A stretch of 47,141 nucleotides of DNA from Candidatus Calditenuaceae archaeon HR02 (GCA_002898395.1 BEHE01000015.1:1-47141), one strand, 5' to 3'. Positions 1 to 15,517 are shown, numbered from the stretch's first letter. Program-made: numbers and translations. Notes: generated by a model not told the origin, from the letters alone.

Positions 1-2
1 AA

Positions 3-338
3 CTATACAAATCCAGAAAAAATGTCTACTACATCAGGATATGGAGGGGCTTTAATAAGAGGTTCTACGAGACTGTTGGCTTCACCATCGAAAGAAAAAG
101 GATAAGGCTAGAAGAATATCTCAGAAGAAGGATGACTAATACCAACCCCTCCCCCCTCTTTTCCCCTCCAAACCTAGCTTCACGCTTACAACCAAGCCAC
201 AGTACCCTCCCAACTATTCCTAGAAAAATAAAGATGTGCGGGCCGCGGGTGGGAATCGAACCCACGACCGCCGGGTCACTGCCGCAGGGTCCACAGCCCG
301 GAGTGCTACCAGCTACACCACCGCGGCCACCACCATGA
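3..338 (+). CDS. 3' end of a putative free-standing LAGLIDADG homing endonuclease (5'-partial at window edge)
   Basis: Frame from nt 3 is open: LYKSRKNVYYIRIWRGFNKRFYETVGFTIERKRIRLEEYLRRR. This resembles the Y-x-L-x-I...RF...(I/V)GF(S/T)I-x-RK...LE C-terminus of archaeal LAGLIDADG domains. It is the same frame as track ORF 132..338 and runs antisense through tRNA-His. Confidence 0.6.
   Translation, partial: LYKSRKNVYYIRIWRGFNKRFYETVGFTIERKRIRLEEYLRRRMTNTNPSPLFSPPNLASRLQPSHSTLPTIPRKIKMCGPRVGIEPTTAGSLPQGPQPGVLPATPPRPPP
241..328 (-). tRNA. tRNA-His(GUG) with 14-nt intron at 37/38 (277..290) and encoded G-1
   Basis: Acceptor GCCGCGG/CCGCGGC with G-1 and C73, anticodon stem CCGGG/CCCGG, T-arm GTGGG-TTCGATT-CCCAC. 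BHB: CUGU pairs with intron GCAG, with bulges GG|A and UG|A. Confidence 0.95.
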
Positions 339-1720: not shown

Positions 1721-2320
1721 ATGGATGGGCAGGGATTGATTGTGGCCATCGAAGGAATAGACGGCGCGGGGAAGACAACCCAGGCTAAGAGGCTTGTGAG
1801 ATTCCTCAGGTCGAAGGGTATGGCGGCCAAGTATACTGCGGAGCCAACCAGCTCAGTCCTAGGAAAGATGATTAAATCATATCTGAGGCGGGGAGGAGTG
1901 GACCCCCACCTACTGGCCCTACTCTTTGCAGCAGACAGGATCTACCACCTAAAGAAGACAGTGAACCCGATGCTGGAGAAGGGTCACATAGTGGTTTGTG
2001 ACAGATACCTCTACTCGTCCTACGCGTATCAGGGGGTGATGACGGGGCAGCCCCTCTGGGTCAGGGAGATAAACAGGATGGCACCACACCCCGACATAGC
2101 CGTCCTATTAGACATCAGTGTTGAAGAAGCTCTGAGGAGGAAGAAGAGGAGGATCAGTTTCGAGGACCCGGACTTTCTAGAGCAGGTTAGGGGAGAGTAT
2201 CTTAGACTTTGCGAGTCAGGGTTGATGGTGAAGATAGATGCAGGCGGTGAAATAGACGCAGTCTTCAGGGAGCTAGTGAAGGTGGTTGCGCCGAGGCTTG
2301 GCCTGAAACATGAAACGTGA
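1721..2320 (+). CDS. tmk: Thymidylate kinase
   Basis: IEGIDGAGKTTQ P-loop, LLFAADR and CDRYLYSSYAYQ motifs. Confidence 0.95.
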   Translation: MDGQGLIVAIEGIDGAGKTTQAKRLVRFLRSKGMAAKYTAEPTSSVLGKMIKSYLRRGGVDPHLLALLFAADRIYHLKKTVNPMLEKGHIVVCDRYLYSSYAYQGVMTGQPLWVREINRMAPHPDIAVLLDISVEEALRRKKRRISFEDPDFLEQVRGEYLRLCESGLMVKIDAGGEIDAVFRELVKVVAPRLGLKHET

Positions 2321-2362
2321 CGGGGGCGCCGAGGCCGGATTACTGTACTGATCGTTGGATAG

Positions 2363-2833
2363 TCATTCTCCACATCCGCGTAGCAGATTCTTAATCTCCG
2401 AGGCTACGGATATGCATGCTTTCTCCACTCTTTCGGAGAGGCCTGAGCCCTGTTCGAACCGCTCGCCCTCTATGCCGTAGACTATTGTCTTGGGTGGAAG
2501 TATATTGAGGGATTCAGCCAAACCGATGATCTCTGGCAAAGTCATGGTGTGTGTCGATCTCCACGCCGCCGTCCTTGATAGTTTATCTATTGAGTCGAGC
2601 CTATGGATAGCTCCTGCCCCAGAGAATTTCTCCATCGCATCTACTACGACTAGGAGGTCTATGTCTCCTGTTAGATAGTTTAGGAGCTCGGCGGGCGTCT
2701 GGAGCCTGATAACCTTTGCACCAGCCTCACCTGAGAGTAGGTCGGCGACCCTATGCCCAGCCCCATCGTCCCCCCTATGCAAGTTGCCGATACATGCCAC
2801 CAGTACCCGTCGTCTGCAGTTACTCTTCCTCAA
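2363..2833 (-). CDS. Hydrogenase maturation endopeptidase
   Basis: [16 protein letters not shown] and STH motifs; lies directly after the large subunit gene. Confidence 0.92.
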
Positions 2834-4115
2834 TCTCCAGTTTTAGGAAGTGTGTCGCGCAGGATATACAGGGGTCATAGTTTCTTATCGCCTGCTCAAA
2901 CCTCCAGACTGCCTGGCTGCGGGGAAGCCTCACTATCTCGGGCGCCAGGGCCCTGAGATCCTCCTCGATCCTCTTCTGGTTCTGGGCGGTCGGGGGAACT
3001 ATCTTGGCCGAGAGTATTCGGCCCTCGCCATCCACGTCGTACCTGTGGTAGAGTATGCCCCTTGGAGCCTCTGTGCAGCCACAGCCCCTTCCAGCCTTGA
3101 CCTGCGGCTCCACCCTAGGACTCGAAGGCTCCACATACTCGTCTATAATCCTGAGAGACTCTTCCAAGGCGTAGTATGTCTCAGCCACTCGGGCTATTAT
3201 ACTCTTGAATGGGTTCCTGCAAGGTATCTTGAACCCGATTCTCCTCAGCATCTCTTTGGTGCCGTCGTGGAGCTTGTTATAGTTCAGGTTAATTCTGGAG
3301 AGGGGGCCTACCATGTACGCGCCCCTGCCAACTATGTAGGAATGCAGGGCGTTGGAATGCGGCACCTGCTCTTCCGCAAAATAGTCCTCATACTGGTCAA
3401 CCGAGATGTCTAACCCCTTGTTCGACGCGATCCTTCCCTCGTTCATTGGATACTCATCTGGATGTCTGAGGGAGACAAACTCGTAGTCCTGTTCAAACGC
3501 TGGAAACTCTAGGTCCGCAACCCATTCCAGCAGGTTTCCAACAGTCTCCATGCTTTCTACAAGTCTCTCCCTCAGCCCTATCAGCTCGCGTTTGGAAGGC
3601 GCGCGGTAAAACCCACCGACACAGGCGGCGACGGGGTGAATCTCTCTGCCACCCAGCAGCGAGACTATATCATTCCCAAGCTTCTTCACCTTGAGGGCAT
3701 TCTTCACTACGTCGGGGTGTTTCTTAGCCATCTTGATGGCATCATCATACCCGAGGAAGTCCGGCGCGTGGAGTAGGAAGGCGTGGAGCATGTGGCTCTC
3801 TATCCACTCTCCACAGTAGTAGAGCCTCCTCAGACTCCTCACTGAAGGGTCTATGGCTACGCCGAAGAGCCTTTCAAAAGCGTGGACCGAGCTCATCTGA
3901 TAAGCTACAGGGCAAATCCCGCAGATCCTAGCAGTTATGTCTGGGGCGTCATAATACATCCGGCCCACAAGCAGCGCCTCAAAGAGTCTTGGGGGCTCGA
4001 ATATCCTAAACTTGACGTCTACGACCTCGCGGCCTCTAAGCTTGATGTAGAGCGCCCCCTCACCCTCGACCCTTGCGAGGTAGTCCACGCGGTATTCTCT
4101 CTCCCTCGCGGTCAA
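2820..4115 (-). CDS. hydA: Group 3b [NiFe]-hydrogenase large (alpha) subunit
   Basis: RVEGEG, L1 motif [16 protein letters not shown]2 motif DPCISCATH with a cleavable C-terminal tail. Confidence 0.95.
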
Positions 4116-4882
4116 GTCTCGGCCTCCACCTCCCTGAAGCCAGGCGCCCAGGCGTTGAAGAGTCTGAAAGCCATGACGGCCTCCTCCCGCCGCTTACCCA
4201 GCTCTATGAAATGCTTCATCAGCGATTTTGAGTTCGGAGACTCCTTCGGCCCGTAGCAGCCGTAGCAGCCTCTCCCGTAGGCTGGGCAGATGGCGCCGCA
4301 GCCAGCATGTGTTACGGGCCCAAGACACGGAACCCCCTTAGCCACCATTATACAGGCGGTACCCCTTAGCTTACACTCCACACATACGCTCTGGTTAGGA
4401 ATGCTGGGCGCCCTCCCAGCAAGGTACGCAGACATCACCTCGAGTAGCTGGTACTTGTTTATTGGGCAGCCCCTGAGCTCGAAGTCAACCTGGACATGAT
4501 CTGAGACGGGGGTAGACTTGTCCAGCGTCTCAATGTACTCCGGCTTCGGGTAGACGTATTTCATAAACTCTGCAGAGCCCCTCCAATTCCTGAGGGCCTG
4601 TATCCCACCCGCCGTCGCACATGCGCCTATGGTTATGAGCACCTTGCAGCTCTTCCTGATCTCTTTGATGAGCTCGGCGTCGTGAGGGGTTGTTATGCTT
4701 CCCTCGACCAGCCCAATGTCATACGGCCCCTTGACGACCGCACGGCTAGCCTCCAAGAAGTACGCGATCTCGAATGCCTCGCCGATGGCCAGCAGCTCCT
4801 CCTCCAAGTCGAGGATGCTAAGCTGGCAGCCGTCGCAGGATGCGAATTTGTAGACGGCAATCTTTGGCCTCCTCGCCATCAC
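4112..4882 (-). CDS. hydD: Group 3b [NiFe]-hydrogenase small (delta) subunit
   Basis: [18 protein letters not shown], and C-terminal CVEC..CLGP..GCGAICP..GCYGC Fe-S motifs. Confidence 0.93.
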
Positions 4883-5736
4883 ACCTCCCTCCTACCGAAG
4901 AAGTTTGAGACCTCGGAGAGGCTGAAGACCGGCCCATCCTTGCAGATGAAGAATGGGCCGAACTGGCAGTGTCCACATATCCCGACGCCACACTTCATAT
5001 TCCTCTCCATGGAGATAAAGATCCTCTCATCTGGCAGCCCCTGATTCTTCAGCTCCTGCACAGTGAACTTCATCATTATCTCGGGTCCGCAGACGTAGGC
5101 GTAAGTGCTGTTTGGCTCAAGCCTCAAGTGTCTGAACAGCGTCGTGACCACGCCTATGTATCCGCGCCACTTCTCATCACCCCTATCCACCGTGACGAGT
5201 AGTTGGGTGTCCAGTCTTCCCCTCCAGACCCGCAAGTCTCTCTTATAGAGTAGGTCAGCCGGCGTGCGGGCCCCATAGAGAACATAAAACTTCCCATACC
5301 TCTCCCTGTTTTTTATGATATGCTGGATTGCAGGTCTTAGGGGCGCGAGTCCTATTCCACCTCCCACAATAATCACGTCCTGACCCTCAGCCTCTCTGAG
5401 CGGCCATCCCCTACCGAACGGACCCCTCAACCCCAAGTTAGAGCCTATACGCGCCGACGCCAAGGCCTTAGTCACAGGCCCGACCGCCCTAACAGTATGC
5501 TCTAGCGTCTGCCCATCTGAGAGGGCTCCGCTTATTGAGATGGGGACCTCGCCTACTCCGTAGGCGTAGAGCATGTTAAACTGGCCTGGGTTGTGGGATA
5601 TCTCGCTACGCTGGCGCGGCCGAAGCCTGAGTGTGTAGGTGTCCGGCGTCTCTTTGGCTTTCCCAACAACCTGGCACCACTCGATCTTGAACGTGTCTAG
5701 ACCAGTGGCTGCTCCAAGGCTTTGCTCTGCCATCAC
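4879..5736 (-). CDS. hydG: Group 3b hydrogenase gamma subunit (FAD/NAD(P)-binding, 2Fe-2S)
   Basis: [27 protein letters not shown] and [12 protein letters not shown] motifs. Confidence 0.93.
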
Positions 5737-8236: not shown

Positions 8237-8621
8237 CTCTCACACTCACACCCCTACCCGAGATAATCCTCAAATCTAGGCTCCCACACCTCCTGCAGGC
8301 CGCATAGGACGCGATAAGATCTGGTAGAAAATGAATCATCTCCCTCTCCTCCTCGCTGAGATGTGAGACGGCCTCGCCGAAGGAGATTATGTTTCCGCAT
8401 GAGCCACAGCTAATTCTGGCAGGCTCAATCTCGATGGAGAAGTCTGCACCCCTAACCTCACTGGCCGCGATCAGCCCCTCCAAAGCCTCACGAAGCACCC
8501 CAATGTCAAGCATACTCAGCTCACCTACCAAGACCTTAAACCTCTTAACACCACAGCCAAAATTTAATGAAAAATTTCTAACAGACTCCACAACCCCCCT
8601 CGCTATCACATACTCATGCAT
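8214..8621 (-). CDS. hypA: Hydrogenase nickel incorporation protein HypA
   Basis: MHE N-terminus, GELS, CGSC...CRRC with the long archaeal insertion (IHFLPD), GRGV. Confidence 0.93.
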   Translation of the reverse strand: MHEYVIARGVVESVRNFSLNFGCGVKRFKVLVGELSMLDIGVLREALEGLIAASEVRGADFSIEIEPARISCGSCGNIISFGEAVSHLSEEEREMIHFLPDLIASYAACRRCGSLDLRIISGRGVSVRDVVFTEG

Positions 8622-8730
8622 ACACTCTTAGAGAAACACTACACTCACCAACCTATAATCATATCCTCGTCAGAGAAGCAGTACACAGGTACAAAGTCGT
8701 CTAGAGGATTTAGGGTCGGGAGTTAAGGGC

Positions 8731-8888
8731 TATCTTCTTTTTGTCGTGCTTTTTAGTTTTATGTTGCATCTAACCCGTTCTGTGTCTATGTATTGTGGGT
8801 GTTTTGAGGAGTATTTAAATCACTTATCATATGCAACGCTACCACCGTCGTAGTAATAGTGAGGTGGCCTAAAGCGTACATAAGTGTC
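8731..8888. repeat. Dispersed repeat, copy A (partners 46234..46344 and 46659..46686)
   Basis: Shared blocks TGTTGCATCT, TCTGTGTYTATGTATTGT, TTTTGAGGAGTATTTAAA and CTACCA; the 28-mer at 8861..8888 matches 46659..46686 at 25/28. Confidence 0.85.
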
Positions 8889-9126
8889 CCAGAAGAGAGG
8901 TGGATGGGGTAAGATGAATGCATATGTGACATATATCTATCCAAAGGATTACCAGAAGATCCTCGATTTTATCGGAACGTCGATGCCTAGAACGCGGCTC
9001 TCATCAAACTCTCAATAAAGAAAGAAGATACGGCATATGGATGGGATAGGAGAAAGGAAGGACTGGTGGGAGATATGCAAAGTATTGCAAAAGGGGATAG
9101 GTAAGATGATGAAGCGCAGACGATAA
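8884..9126 (+). pseudogene. Degenerate C-terminal remnant of a LAGLIDADG-like endonuclease
   Basis: KRGGWGKMNAYVTYIYPKDYQKILDFIGTSMPR, then frame breaks, ending ...GKMMKRRR*. AT-richer than flanking genes and convergent on the tRNA-Arg 3' end. Confidence 0.4.
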
Positions 9127-9183
9127 CCCACTCCCTTTACCCCCTCATATTTACCACATTGAAAAATCCATAATTATTAAAAT

Positions 9184-9279
9184 CGGGCCCGGTGGGACTC
9201 GAACCCACGATCTGCGGCTCTCTTCGCCGCAGCTGGTGGCTTAGGAGGCCGCCGCCTTATCCTTCTAGGCCACGGGCCC
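9184..9279 (-). tRNA. tRNA-Arg(CCU) with 22-nt intron at 37/38 (9220..9241)
   Basis: Acceptor GGGCCCG/CGGGCCC, anticodon stem GCGGC/GCCGC, CT-CCT-A loop, T-arm GTGGG-TTCGAGT-CCCAC, BHB-like intron. Confidence 0.95.
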
Positions 9280-9314
9280 ATCAACATGCTGTCTGACGAA
9301 TTTCAAAAACCTTA

Positions 9315-11119
9315 CTATGGGACTGTTATTGATTTGGCGAGGTTTCGCGGCTTGTCTGGATCATGCCCCTTGACTATGGCTGTGTAGTATGCGAGGAGCT
9401 GGAAGGGGATGATATAGGTTGTGGGTGAGAGGAGGGGGTGGATTTTCGGCATCTCTATGTAGTAGTCGGCCAGCTGCTTTAGCTCTTGGTCCAAGGCGTC
9501 TCCCACGACGACCGTGTAGGCGCCTCTAGCCTTCATCTCCATTATACTGCCTATGTTTAGTTTCCGATACTCATCTGGAGGCGCAACGAATATGACTGGG
9601 ATACCGCTCTCTATCACGCTTATGGGGCCGTGCTTGCTCTCGCCTGCTGGATAGGTTATGCAGGGGATGTAGGAGAGCTCCATGAGCTTGAGCCGGCCCT
9701 CGAGGGCCGTGCTATAGGATACTCCGCGGCCGAGGATGAATACAACCTTGCTCTCAGCAAGACGCCTCACAGGCTCATTAACCCGTGTCAGGGCCTCAGA
9801 GACGGCCTGGGGAATTCTACTCAGCCAAGAGTTGAACTCGTCAATCTCGTACTGAGCTATCTTCCCCCGAAGCCTTGCGAGGCGGAGGGCAATCTTGGCC
9901 AGCACGAGTACCTGCGAGGTGAAGGTCTTGGTGGCCGCCACACCTATCTCAGGCCCAGCGTTCTGGAGGACGTAGGCCCTCGAGACCCTCGTTAAAGTGG
10001 AGCCGACGGTATTGGTGATCCCGAGTATCGTGCAGGCTCGCATCCTCGCATATTCTAGCGCGCTGAGCACGTCGGCGGTTTCGCCTGACTGGCTTACAGC
10101 TAGGATGACTGTGTCAACCCCTATAGAGGCTCCATAGTTAGGTATGAACTCTGAGGCTATGACCGGGAGGGTGGGGAGCCGCGCAAGCTGTGAGAAGAGG
10201 TATGAGCCTGTGACACACGCGTTATAAGAGGTCCCCGCACCGAGGAGGAATATCGTACGCCCCCTGTCTAGGAGCTCCGCGAGAAGGTCCACATACTCGG
10301 TCTGTAGTTTGAGAGAGTTCCGAAGGGTCTCAGGCTGCTCGAATATCTCTTTAAGCATGAAGTGTGGATACCCTTGCTTCTCAGCCATCTCTGCGGTGAG
10401 ATCGACTACTTTGACCTGTCTCTCAACAGTCTCGCCCGTATCTATCCGCAGGACGACGTAGCCGCTGGCGGTCAAAACCACCATATCTCCATCATGTAGA
10501 AAAACCATCTCCTTAGTCATGTCAAGAAGTGCGGTGATGTCTGAGGCCAGCATGTTGAAACCCTTCCCAACACCGATGATTAGGGGAGCATCCCTCCTAG
10601 CAGCAAGTATTTTCTCAGGGCTCAGAGAGGAGACCAGCGCGACCGCATAGGACCCCTCAAGCCTTTGGAGAGCCCTCCTGAAGGCCTGCTCTAACTGCTC
10701 CCCCCTTCTCAAATACTCCTCCACTAGATGAGCTATGACTTCGCTGTCAGTCCTAGATGCTAGGGAGTGGTCGAGGTCTAGGAGCTCCTTCTTCAGTGCT
10801 AAGTAGTTTTCAATTACGCCGTTGTGAACTATGGCGATCCTTCCGCTACAGTCTGTATGTGGATGTGCGTTCACTGCTGTGGGGGCGCCATGAGTGGCCC
10901 ATCTCGTGTGGGCTATCCCAACTGTGCCGGGCATGGACTCCAGCTTCAGCCTCGCATTTATCTCATCAATCCTACCTGCATCCTTCCTGACCAAAATTTC
11001 GCCCGCGTAGACCATCGCCACCCCGCCGAGTCGTATCCCCGATACTCAAGCCTCTTCAAAGCCCTCAACAATATGGGTGCGGCCTCCGCCGTGCCAGTAT
11101 AGCCCACTATGCCACACAT
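9315..11119 (-). CDS. glmS: Glutamine--fructose-6-phosphate aminotransferase, frameshifted at 11021..11024 (error or pseudogene)
   Basis: True start ATG at 11119 gives MCGIVG...[13 protein letters not shown]. One G is missing in a G4 run before the 568-aa track ORF ([28 protein letters not shown]). Confidence 0.9.
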
Positions 11120-11236
11120 CAGGTCGCAGCATATGCTTCTCTTATATTTAATCGCGATTATTTCAGAGGAGTAGCTCTCGGCCTCTCTAAAGATTGGAGA
11201 GGCTGGGCAGGTGTAAATTTAAATGTTCCCCCTGGC

Positions 11237-11455
11237 TTGATGCTGACTGGTGTCCTCCTAATGGTTAGGCTGAAGCCACAGCTTTTTGTGAGGCTGGCTG
11301 TTAAGGCGCTCGGAGTGGTAGGCCTCGTCATCTCGTTGCAGATGATCCAGGCTCTCTCCTCCCTCGAGATGGGTATAATGACTGTCTTCCCATACGTAGC
11401 CATCATAGCGTTCGCCGCCCTCTTAGTCGCCAGTATCCTTGCAATTCTCGCCTAA
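11237..11455 (+). CDS. Small membrane protein (2 TM), hypothetical
   Basis: Hydrophobic 72-aa ORF after a TTTAAA box, ending 16 nt before thrC. Confidence 0.6.
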   Translation: MMLTGVLLMVRLKPQLFVRLAVKALGVVGLVISLQMIQALSSLEMGIMTVFPYVAIIAFAALLVASILAILA

Positions 11456-11471
11456 GCCATAGGTTGAGACG

Positions 11472-12689
11472 GTGCGTCCTCAAGAGTATATGCTTGCATG
11501 TATATCGTGCGGCGAGACCTATCCCTACAACGAGATAGAATACAAGTGTCGGAGGTGCGGCGATCTTCTAGAGGCGAGGATTGAGGGCGGAGAGGTTTTC
11601 AGGCCGGACAGCCTCCAAGGCCGCGTACATAGCATTTGGCGGTATAGGGAGCTACTCCCCGGCTTTTTCACAAGGATAGTAAGTCTCGGAGAGGGGTACA
11701 CTAGGCTTCTCAGGGCTGAGAGGCTTGCAGAGTTGATTGGCGTCCGGGAGCTGTATGTCAAGTTGGAGGGACTAAACCCGACGGGTAGCTTCAAAGACCG
11801 GGGCATGAGTGTGGGCGTCTCGATGGCCTGCACCCTAGGGGCTAGGAGCGTGGTCTGTGCCTCAACCGGCAACACCTCAGCCTCCCTAGCCGCCTACGCA
11901 GCCAGAGCTGGGCTTGAGTGCAGGGTCTACGTGCCTGAGGGAAAGATAGCTTTGGGGAAGCTCTTCCAGGCAAGGATGTTTGGGGCCAAAATCCACCAAG
12001 TCGCGGGAAGCTTCGACGACGCTTTGAAGATAGTAATGGAGAGGAGCGGCAGCGAGTCCTACATATTAAACTCGGTGAACCCTTGGAGGATTGAGGGGCA
12101 GAAGACAGCAGCCTTCGAGCTCTGGGAGCAGATGGGCGGGAAGACCGACTATGTGGTCGTGCTGCCGGTAGGAAATTCTGGAAACATTTCCGCCTACTGG
12201 AAAGGATTCCGAGAACTCCTTGACCACGGACTCATCGACACGGCACCCAGGCTGGTGGGCGTGCAGGCCGCGGGGGCCTCACCCATCGTCGAAGTGGTGA
12301 GTAAGGGCTTGGACAGGCTCCCCGATTGGCCTAACCCCGAGACAATAGCAACAGCCATCAGGATAGGCAGGCCGATAAACTGGAAAAAGGGTGTCCGCGC
12401 TATCAAGGAGTCGGGTGGAACGGCTGTCAGGGTAAGCGACGAGGAGATCCTCCAAGCCTTGAGGCTTCTAGCAACAACCGAGGGGATAGCAACCGAGCCC
12501 GCAGGTGCCTCGCCAATCGCCGGGGTGAAGAAGCTGGTGGAGGAGGGATGGCTCGGCAGAGACGACAAGGTAATCTGCATAGCCACGGGAAATATGCTCA
12601 AAGACACCAGCGAGACACTCGTCGCGTGGAACCAGCCACAGAGACACGAACTATCCACTACCCCTACGAGGACGAGATCGATAGGATAA
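11472..12689 (+). CDS. thrC: Threonine synthase
   Basis: N-terminal Zn ribbon, NPTGSFKDRG (PLP lysine), ASTGNTS, PVGNSGN and TGNMLKD motifs. Confidence 0.93.
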   Translation: MRPQEYMLACISCGETYPYNEIEYKCRRCGDLLEARIEGGEVFRPDSLQGRVHSIWRYRELLPGFFTRIVSLGEGYTRLLRAERLAELIGVRELYVKLEGLNPTGSFKDRGMSVGVSMACTLGARSVVCASTGNTSASLAAYAARAGLECRVYVPEGKIALGKLFQARMFGAKIHQVAGSFDDALKIVMERSGSESYILNSVNPWRIEGQKTAAFELWEQMGGKTDYVVVLPVGNSGNISAYWKGFRELLDHGLIDTAPRLVGVQAAGASPIVEVVSKGLDRLPDWPNPETIATAIRIGRPINWKKGVRAIKESGGTAVRVSDEEILQALRLLATTEGIATEPAGASPIAGVKKLVEEGWLGRDDKVICIATGNMLKDTSETLVAWNQPQRHELSTTPTRTRSIG

Positions 12690-12747
12690 TATAGGATAAT
12701 AATAAGAAGTTACATATACGGCCAACCCACGAGAATTTGAGGAGAGT

Positions 12748-12819
12748 GGGCCGGTAGATCAGTGGCAGATCGCCCGGTTCGCGCCCGGGAGGCCGCGGGT
12801 TCGAATCCCGCCCGGTCCA
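12748..12819 (+). tRNA. tRNA-Ala(CGC)
   Basis: Acceptor GGGCCGG/CCGGTCC with G3:U70, anticodon arm CCCGG-TTCGCGC-CCGGG, TTCGAAT T-loop, discriminator A. Confidence 0.96.
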
Positions 12820-12931
12820 ACATTATAATCATTCTAACTGAGGTAAGTATGAGAGGGAGGGAAGGGGGCGGGTTTTCGTTGATGTTGCTTTTCTGGGGTT
12901 CATTTTTAAATATCGGATGTGAGTGGTCTGA

Positions 12932-15179: not shown

Positions 15180-15337
15180 CGTTCAGAGGCCCTGCCGCCC
15201 CTCTCCATAGATAAATGATGAAGATGGGGGGGTCATGGGGCCATTATCCCGTATTACTCGATAAATATCAGGGGAGTCCCTAAGGCATGCCCGGTGGCTG
15301 TGAATGGATAAATATGAGGGGCTGGTATTAGAGGGGC

Positions 15338-15517
15338 GTGTCAGGCTCGCGGAGGCGTAGGAGGGAGGCGCCCCTGCCGGCCACAGGGGCTGGGCTGCTA
15401 AGGTTCTTTGAGGAAGAGACCAAGGGTATTAAGCTCAAGCCCCAGATAATCCTCTTAGCCGGCGGCCTCTTGATAGCCATGGTGCTATTGTTCAGAATCC
15501 TCTTCCCCACACTCTAA
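15338..15517 (+). CDS. secG: Preprotein translocase subunit Sec61beta/SecG; absent from ORF track
   Basis: Manual translation from GTG: MSGSRRRRREAPLPATGAGLLRFFEEETKGIKLKPQIILLAGGLLIAMVLLFRILFPTL (59 aa), with the AGLLRFF..E..IK..P signature and one TM helix. Confidence 0.92.
   Translation: MSGSRRRRREAPLPATGAGLLRFFEEETKGIKLKPQIILLAGGLLIAMVLLFRILFPTL

Follow-up and report, generated by a model that had tools for sequence, protein, structure and literature searches.

A G-rich motif recurs directly behind tRNA genes in a 47,141-nucleotide (nt) contig of the archaeon Candidatus Calditenuaceae HR02, an Aigarchaeote (BEHE01000015.1; the whole contig is called the window below). The motif is very probably the conserved end of a mobile LAGLIDADG cassette that sits behind tRNA genes, and not a signal of the tRNA genes themselves. 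The cassette consists of a free-standing gene, whose product of about 285 amino acids is a monomeric LAGLIDADG endonuclease with two motifs and a helix-turn-helix at the N-terminus. The repeat family, the protein family and its fold, the exact junction with the tRNA gene, and the occurrence of both empty and filled alleles in related genomes are established here. The window has cassette sequences at three sites, behind tRNA-His, tRNA-Arg and tRNA-Ala, which are assigned to two cassette families, A and B.

The genome of the window is referred to as G000, in which the window is contig C15 (all C-numbers are contigs of G000), and G002 and G004-G007 are congeners. The tRNA genes were predicted with ARAGORN and cassette ends were located with nhmmer. 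The features at the three sites are:

1..239, plus strand: family-B cassette remnant behind tRNA-His, truncated by the contig start
240-327, minus strand: tRNA-His(GTG), 88 nt
8659..9182, plus strand: entire family-A cassette remnant, about 514-524 nt, missing from the empty alleles (G004, G006)
9120..9182, minus strand: family-A cassette end of tRNA-Arg(CCT), E 4.5e-12, beginning 0 nt past the tRNA
9183-9280, minus strand: tRNA-Arg(CCT), 98 nt; the cassette begins directly past the discriminator base
12747-12821, plus strand: tRNA-Ala(CGC)
12822..12880, plus strand: solo family-A cassette end (scar) of tRNA-Ala, E 0.0021, beginning 7 nt past the tRNA

With lengths of 88 and 98 nt, tRNA-His and tRNA-Arg both contain introns, which points to an archaeon.

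The three sites in the window

A first-pass annotation of the window had described a motif string behind each of the three tRNAs and had seen in them three states of decay of one mobile element. The three strings are present exactly where it placed them. The likeness of the Ala and Arg strings holds over their whole length in a local alignment with a score of 28, which was reached by 1 of 2000 composition-preserving shuffles, and GGTAARTATGAGRGGG with at most two mismatches has three matches in the window compared to 0.09 expected. The string behind tRNA-His, regarded earlier as a looser copy, is alike only at the level of composition: the observed score was reached by 696 of 2000 shuffles for the Ala-His pair and 1094 of 2000 for Arg-His. 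It is an analogous G-rich tract that belongs to family B, while the Arg and Ala sites belong to family A, and the window thus does not show one element decaying.

At tRNA-Arg the cassette end consists of an A/T-rich start, TTTTAATAATTATGGATTTTTC, followed by the motif (9125-9158), and extends as far as GGGTTATCG. In the family-A copies with GGGTTATCG, this one included, the complement of that string places a TAA stop directly after the codons for ...MMKRRR. Positions 8893-9156 on the plus strand hold the decayed C-terminal third of a family-A LAGLIDADG gene with in-frame stops (2 TAA); the tblastn match at 8911-9156 covers residues 211-291 of the A_full query with 51% identity. The remnant behind tRNA-His is 91-93% identical to copies behind tRNA-Leu on C6 and C7. 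It encodes a LAGLIDADG C-terminus on the plus strand, the conserved part of which is at 3-86 (tblastn), and its frame is open across the pyrimidine tract (the complement of the G-rich stretch 136-178) into tRNA-His antisense. The convergent LAGLIDADG-like sequences that had been reported at these two sites are thus borne out by both the tblastn matches and the translations. At tRNA-Ala, as the earlier description also had it, only the motif remains: about 51-58 nt are left and these contain no endonuclease sequence. A single contig from three DNA runs spans 8610-9210 with one allele and is uninformative on polymorphism.

Empty, scarred and filled sites in related genomes

Seven genomes of the same genus formed the comparison set. 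The genes flanking tRNA-Arg(CCT) are collinear in G002, G004, G006 and G007. The site is empty in G006 and G004, with about 53 nt from the tRNA to the next gene. G000 has 514 additional nt, the family-A remnant. In G002 the addition is 1471 nt and includes a B-like LAGLIDADG gene that is open and convergent with the tRNA. G007 has 538 nt at this place, with no tblastn match to any LAGLIDADG query. All these differences start directly past ...CACCGGGCCCG (...GGGCCCG), i.e. at the discriminator, and the former trailer (AGGATAGGATTATGGGTTGG...) resumes intact past the insert. ARAGORN places a further insert of 1541 nt at the anticodon-loop (intron) position of the G006 orthologue (L043 3897-5531), the same tRNA-Arg that has the empty 3' site. 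This insert holds a 260-amino-acid open reading frame (ORF) (4444-5226) with no Pfam match and no LAGLIDADG similarity.

At tRNA-Ala(CGC) the tRNA leads directly into the native trailer, with no motif, in G002, G004 and G007. Relative to these, G000 has about 51 additional nt (12822-12872), which is the solo motif, and G006 is filled with a B-like gene. The terminal GGTTTTCG of the G000 scar is also present in the native trailer, as microhomology at the deletion point, and judged from this sequence a deletion through microhomology is the probable cause of the loss of the endonuclease gene. In G005 the contig breaks 72 nt past the syntenic tRNA, which has the anticodon TGC rather than CGC, and the trailer up to the break is cassette-like. 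A displaced 29-nt 3' fragment of tRNA-Ala, comprising the T-arm and acceptor strand, is located directly ahead of the native trailer in the same genome (L047 about 2040-2075). This arrangement suggests that the G005 cassette arrived along with part of another tRNA. At tRNA-Lys a family-A remnant in G000 takes the place of a membrane-protein gene of G002, G006 and G007, and the junction is likewise at the discriminator. The comparison of empty and filled alleles, proposed earlier as a check on mobility, thus gave both states for the Arg as well as the Ala site.

It had been considered in the first-pass annotation that the motif is instead a signal of the host (a tRNA terminator, a 3'-processing mark or an antisense promoter). 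Such a signal, or equally a promoter of the downstream gene, would be retained because the cell needs it, and would account for the motif always being directly behind tRNAs, for an A/T-rich start that often has runs of four or five T, and for the better conservation of the tRNA-proximal part compared to the decayed ORF (mean pairwise identity 0.77-0.80 against 0.51-0.72). However, the orthologous tRNA-Arg and tRNA-Ala of the congeners lack the motif, and among the 30 best-scoring of 43 tRNA matches in G004 none of the trailers are alike and none matches the motif model (0/30). One G004 trailer (L073) carries a different cassette, and family A is confined to G000. The motif therefore arrives with the cassette, and the idea of a host signal, which we now hold to be highly improbable, is already largely refuted by the congener comparison.

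The recurrence of TAAATATGAGGGG ahead of a short ORF at 15338, said earlier to be secG, had also been cited for a promoter. The string is indeed there:

15309..15321, plus strand: TAAATATGAGGGG look-alike, unrelated to the cassette and promoter-like, 17 nt ahead of the GTG of a 59-amino-acid ORF (15338-15517)

The TAAATAT part of the string is, however, not kept in the other family-A copies, which have TAGGTAT, CAAGTGT or GAGAAAG instead, and a promoter reading of TAAATAT was rejected on this ground. In every congener, moreover, the prolyl-tRNA-synthetase-like gene past tRNA-Ala has kept a conserved TTTATTTTTAAATA box of its own. Within 15260-15340 a pair of TATA-like boxes, GATAAATATCAGGGG and GATAAATATGAGGGG, precedes the GTG at 15338, the two being 47 nt apart. 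The 59-amino-acid ORF may be a leaderless gene of the Sec61-beta/SecG kind.

Association with tRNA 3' ends across the genome

The genome G000 comprises 1,733,307 bases in 36 contigs with 51% G+C, and 47 tRNAs were predicted in it, of which a few are doubtful. Two large sets of near-identical trailers stand out in the 120 nt past the tRNAs. When 200-nt flanks were compared by all-against-all blastn (E<=1e-5), the downstream flank resembled that of another tRNA in 33 of 47 cases, compared to 4 of 47 for the upstream flank. Eleven copies of the family-A trailer went into a profile, which gave 17 matches across the 1.73 Mb genome with a threshold of E<=0.01. Fifteen of these begin 0-11 nt past the end of an ARAGORN tRNA and in tRNA sense, the Arg and Ala copies of the window among them. 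About 36 LAGLIDADG places were found with tblastn and about 29 of them, in our reading, adjoin a tRNA 3' end tail to tail. Taken with the alleles above and the relatives below, these figures uphold the earlier proposal of a mobile LAGLIDADG family behind many tRNAs.

Six more copies of the cassette end are without an annotated neighbour tRNA. One of them adjoins a tRNA-Ser truncated by a contig end, and at the five orphan copies (C29 11465, C9 27267, C31 9524, C1 149859 and C2 62757) no tRNA was found by ARAGORN or by blastn with the tRNAs of the genome. Contigs end within 550 nt downstream of a tRNA in seven cases, the usual effect of a repeat on an assembly.

An apparent copy linked to 5S rRNA turned out to be behind a cryptic intron-bearing tRNA (C6 91772-91871, L005 773-872), located 130 nt past the 5S rRNA gene. 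This tRNA was missed by ARAGORN and scored 19.9 bits with Rfam, and a family-B cassette is directly behind it; tRNA counts from standard tools therefore understate the association of the cassettes. A tRNA-Ser(CGA) is present in two copies (C23 19609-19725 and C25 18786-18885, the latter at a contig end) that are 100% identical over 99 nt. Their trailers differ: the one on C23 looks native and that on C25 is a family-A cassette. The two may stem from a gene duplication or from allelic variation in the population sampled. ARAGORN also called a tRNA-Pro with a 974-nt intron (C16 5484-6549) and a tRNA-Gln with a 574-nt intron (C18 3538-4207). Both have 3' ends unlike those of other tRNAs and no internal LAGLIDADG similarity, and the calls are probably false.

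The endonuclease and its families

The cassette repeats are 0.5-0.9 kb long and their convergent strand encodes two LAGLIDADG motifs behind a helix-turn-helix head. In family A, which includes the Arg and Ala sites of the window, copies are 68-94% identical and every copy is truncated or has stops; the longest (C25 17476-18366) has one in-frame stop. This family has 27 matches in G000 and reaches a maximum of 36% identity in 20 relatives, and has expanded only in G000. Copies of family B, to which the His site belongs, are often more than 90% identical, with near-intact relatives behind tRNA-Met (C2) and tRNA-Asp (C1). Family C has two intact genes, of 290 (C28) and 294 amino acids (C29).

Three copies were scanned against Pfam, namely both intact genes of family C and the C2 copy that is near-intact, and all matched LAGLIDADG_3 (E values of 5e-17, 3e-13 and 5e-18). 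A five-copy profile compared with PDB sequences found PI-PfuI (E 1e-8) and I-DmoI (E 1e-6), and the aspartate in GDG and glutamate in (S/A)EG, which are invariant in 5/5 copies, align with the motif residues of I-DmoI. An AlphaFold2 model (mean pLDDT 75.2, from a shallow alignment of five rows) had I-DmoI as its best Foldseek match, with E 1.4e-7 and a target TM-score of 0.73. The model predicts the double-domain alpha-beta-beta-alpha-beta-beta-alpha LAGLIDADG fold, with an extra three-helix head at the N-terminus, the helix-turn-helix of about 60-70 amino acids. At seven cassette loci Rfam at the gathering score gave nothing besides tRNA and 5S rRNA. Public homologues, the nearest of which are from Candidatus Calditenuis, HR01 and Caldarchaeum metagenome-assembled genomes (MAGs), carry no labels other than 'hypothetical', 'LAGLIDADG family homing endonuclease' or 'intein-encoded DNA endonuclease-like'.

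The enzyme has LAGLIDADG_3 in common with I-DmoI, I-Tsp061I and the endonuclease domain of PI-PfuI (E 1e-6 to 1e-8, both catalytic acidic positions aligned), and its modelled fold in common with I-DmoI. Presence/absence polymorphism, which is typical of homing elements, is found here at fixed sites together with degeneration of the copies (G000, G002, G004-G007). Enzymes of the I-DmoI type are, however, located within rRNA introns or inteins at one conserved site. The cassettes are free-standing and outside the tRNA, past the discriminator and with no extein context, i.e. housed neither in an intron nor in an intein. They also differ from the I-DmoI type in the N-terminal helix-turn-helix and in occupying, within a single genome, the 3' ends of over 20 different tRNA genes.

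The proteins could alternatively be domesticated host factors, regulators of tRNA genes or maturase-like proteins with the motif as their binding site. LAGLIDADG proteins have been domesticated elsewhere, and WhiA was among the Foldseek matches; the extra helix-turn-helix and a box conserved at the nucleotide level beside the gene would also suit such a role. Against this, most copies in G000 are broken or truncated, presence at the same site varies among congeners, and the number of LAGLIDADG copies ranges from 0-2 matches per genome to 27. Alignment A1, in which two of the five sequences are intact genes, moreover shows the catalytic acidic residues retained throughout. We consider domestication very improbable.

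Relatives in other genomes

A joint profile of families B and C was used to retrieve 24 loci from elsewhere. Eight of these have a convergent tRNA, the 3' end of which is -104 to +81 nt from the stop of the frame. At L020 a tRNA-like 3' end is directly ahead of the spacer, and antisense tRNA-like ends were recognised at L008, L014 and L024 by a regular expression for the T-arm and at L022 by eye, giving 13/24 loci that adjoin a tRNA or a tRNA-like end. Five of the 24 have only a co-oriented tRNA, 207-2109 nt upstream, and the remainder have none or reach a contig edge. A search with Rfam at E<=0.05 of the loci of 12 relatives gave no additional tRNA 3' of the gene. Relatives in other Aigarchaeota likewise adjoin tRNA 3' ends.

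The pyrimidine/G-rich tract

Read in tRNA sense, the cassette end is first A/T-rich, often with T-runs, then G-rich and C-poor (the motif), and then continues as the complement of the last endonuclease codons. The spacers of 14 relatives have the same layout, with an A/T-rich start followed by a G/T-rich, C-poor part, and 11 of the 14 (62-85 nt long) contain 1-6 C each. Seen from the endonuclease strand, the same stretch is a tract rich in pyrimidines and poor in G, located at or past the stop codon. It is a trait of the family as a whole. In the best 40-nt window of 23 relative loci the median pyrimidine fraction was 0.775, compared to 0.575 in controls, which were the 80 nt behind 958 long ORFs of G000. 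The 95th percentile of the controls (0.75) was reached or exceeded by 18/23 loci, which have 0-4 G per 40 nt. The control flanks were flat in composition, and the tract is therefore not the usual 3' flank of the organism.

The stop codon is just ahead of the tract in the intact or near-intact copies (C2, C29). The lengths of the G-runs vary by single bases among copies, and the orthologous spacers L027 and L053 are a 1-nt insertion or deletion apart. The box CCAGCCAA(A)CC, found at 10/20 loci, is in phase 0 in five, phase 1 in four and phase 2 in one, and encodes differing peptides. On these three grounds the tract is probably a cis element, constrained as nucleic acid and not as protein. In family A the identity is 0.77-0.80 over the first 45 columns from the tRNA, 0.90 over GGGTTTTCGTCTGCGCTTC and 0.51-0.72 in the dead ORF. 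This gradient, mild as it is, fits survival of the tRNA-proximal end.

The tract is located between two convergent transcription units, and the role we find most plausible for it, at slightly less than an even chance, is to separate the tRNA and endonuclease transcripts as an insulator acting both ways or as a 3'-end signal. That the tract is a neutral by-product is possible though improbable, and a docking or autoregulatory site for the enzyme is a little less likely again. In favour of the first role, T-runs of at least five are found on the endonuclease strand of 7/23 relatives, compared to 11% of the 958 controls, and on the tRNA strand of 11/31 cassette trailers, compared to 2/30 native G004 trailers.

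Several findings count against a terminator function or weaken the case for one tract shared by descent among the families. With a cut-off of at least four T, the endonuclease strand scores only 12/23 against 29% of the controls, and the tRNA strand, at 13/31 compared to 8/30, shows no clear enrichment; family A has TTT at most on the endonuclease strand and no run of four or more. In some copies the frame is formally open through the tract, even into tRNA antisense, and a Pro/Ser-rich tail may still be encoded there. The nhmmer model made from five B-like spacers of genomes other than G000 had no match at E<=10 in G000, so that likeness of the tract across families was found only in composition and short words. 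G-rich, C-poor tracts are also common as such, with 678 genome-wide and 21 of them in tRNA flanks. Canonical G-quadruplex (G4) motifs, with four G-runs of at least three and loops of 1-7, are found in tRNA 3' flanks in 7 of 111 genomic cases, all of them copies of one repeat family, and the four G-runs are missing in the Arg copy of the window and in many relatives.

Proposed spread and decay of the cassettes

In our reading a cassette is placed tail to tail with a tRNA gene, starting directly past the discriminator base, and every invaded tRNA gains the same trailer. Family A invaded about 20 tRNAs in the G000 lineage and then died. Deletions eat the endonuclease gene from the far side, and since those reaching the tRNA gene would disable the tRNA, the tRNA-proximal 40-60 nt persist longest. 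Such persistence leaves the half-decayed copy at tRNA-Arg and the solo motif at tRNA-Ala. For the spread itself, the putative endonuclease may cleave at or near tRNA gene ends, with repair from a filled copy; recognition could be generic to tRNA genes, e.g. through the T-arm box or the GC-rich acceptor, and filled alleles are predicted to be protected by the new A/T-rich trailer.

Such spread resembles the 'intronless homing' of phage T4 SegB and other free-standing homing endonucleases. SegB is likewise a free-standing endonuclease gene among or beside tRNA genes, and by analogy the cassettes would move by cleavage of the endonuclease-free allele and co-conversion of its flanks. SegB differs in being a GIY-YIG enzyme of a phage, at one locus and with no fixed junction at the discriminator, whereas the cassettes encode LAGLIDADG enzymes of an archaeal chromosome at tRNA 3' ends genome-wide.

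Not all results favour this scheme. Near-identical cassettes are found behind tRNAs with unlike 3' ends. In Mantel tests the similarity of the cassettes was not related to that of the tRNA 3' ends (r -0.12, p 0.91; r -0.08, p 0.63), and for the proximal trailer compared with the tRNA 3' end the result was likewise null (r 0.18, p 0.08). No sequence-specific target can therefore be named, and a target entirely within the tRNA would keep filled alleles cleavable. Invaded and non-invaded tRNAs have no obvious difference at the 3' end. An enzyme that lands at any tRNA end would have to read a feature common to tRNA genes.

The main rival is an integrase acting in trans, with the cassettes as passengers or remnants of elements driven by site-specific recombination of the SSV/pNOB8 type, in which the LAGLIDADG gene would have no part in movement. 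Archaeal integrative elements do target tRNA genes (PMC3293823), other repeats adjoin some of the cassettes, and the displaced 29-nt tRNA-Ala fragment of G005, distal to the cassette, is att-like; this last point keeps the rival alive. An integrase is disfavoured by the tRNA-Arg and tRNA-Lys inserts, which begin exactly past the discriminator and lack a duplicate of any tRNA segment at their far side. In addition, the inserts are just 0.5-1.5 kb, and a Pfam scan of three cassette ORFs gave LAGLIDADG_3 as the sole family above threshold. One family invaded over 20 different tRNAs, and different LAGLIDADG families are found at the same site in different species. Weighing both sides, we regard integrase-driven movement as unlikely, though less so than the two host-function readings above.

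In Candidatus Caldiarchaeum subterraneum, Sugahara et al. (2012, PMC3293823) described an insertion of 1,868 bp at tRNA-Thr(GGU), which starts at the end of a tRNA fragment and was termed a transposable element. The sequence, 'a+b', includes region 'a' (545 bp) and ORF 'b' (813 bp), the latter having seven paralogues, and another copy adjoins tRNA-Thr(CGU). Integrase-type recombination was proposed and only tRNA-Thr was concluded to be a target; the word LAGLIDADG has no occurrence in that text. The organism is of the same phylum, the size of ORF 'b' fits the cassette family, and a C. subterraneum MAG has a homologue with 55% identity (L013). Judged by the published description, ORF 'b' likely belongs to the cassette endonuclease family.

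A second repeat of about 1.1-1.2 kb in G000 (C2 61470-62650, L001 about 1970-3150), with copies 83-92% identical, might correspond to region 'a'. It adjoins the 5' end of some LAGLIDADG cassettes, and copies are located at contig ends of C24, C3 (both ends), C18, C29 and C31, where the assembly is broken. Its longest frame contains an SPPY tetrapeptide and had no match in Pfam.

We found no paper on LAGLIDADG genes at archaeal tRNA 3' ends in the literature searched; term look-ups in PMC3218864 and PMC8044849 gave nothing relevant. The present study contributes a series of empty, scarred and filled alleles at two sites in congeners, flank statistics for the whole genome with a congener as control, the placing of the window's three sites in two families and the analysis of the tract.

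Implications

Homing endonucleases are usually seen as tenants of one conserved site in an intron or intein. In the genome studied here one LAGLIDADG family has colonised the 3' ends of most tRNA genes, and the cassettes turn over quickly between species of one genus, leaving recognisable scars. If it is true that the enzyme reads the end of a tRNA gene and not a single sequence, this would give LAGLIDADG enzymes, which serve as scaffolds in genome engineering, a new logic of targeting. On the practical side, the cassettes break assemblies and can pass for regulatory motifs of tRNAs.

A wider and tentative proposal, which we hold to be possible but less likely than not, is that a LAGLIDADG and helix-turn-helix family would generically read tRNA gene ends, through a near-palindromic T-arm box at a fixed distance or GC-rich acceptor DNA, and insert at the discriminator of any tRNA. 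It would bring along a pyrimidine/G-box module that insulates the transcripts or docks the enzyme. Repeated invasion, decay and replacement at the same sites might then be one of the chief causes of rearrangement, of displaced tRNA fragments and of tRNA genes that are split or intron-bearing in archaea. Sugahara et al. (2012) attributed the tRNA rearrangement in Caldiarchaeum to an unidentified element of integrase type. The cassettes provide a concrete candidate for the agent that makes archaeal tRNA loci hot spots of rearrangement, displaced half-genes and introns.

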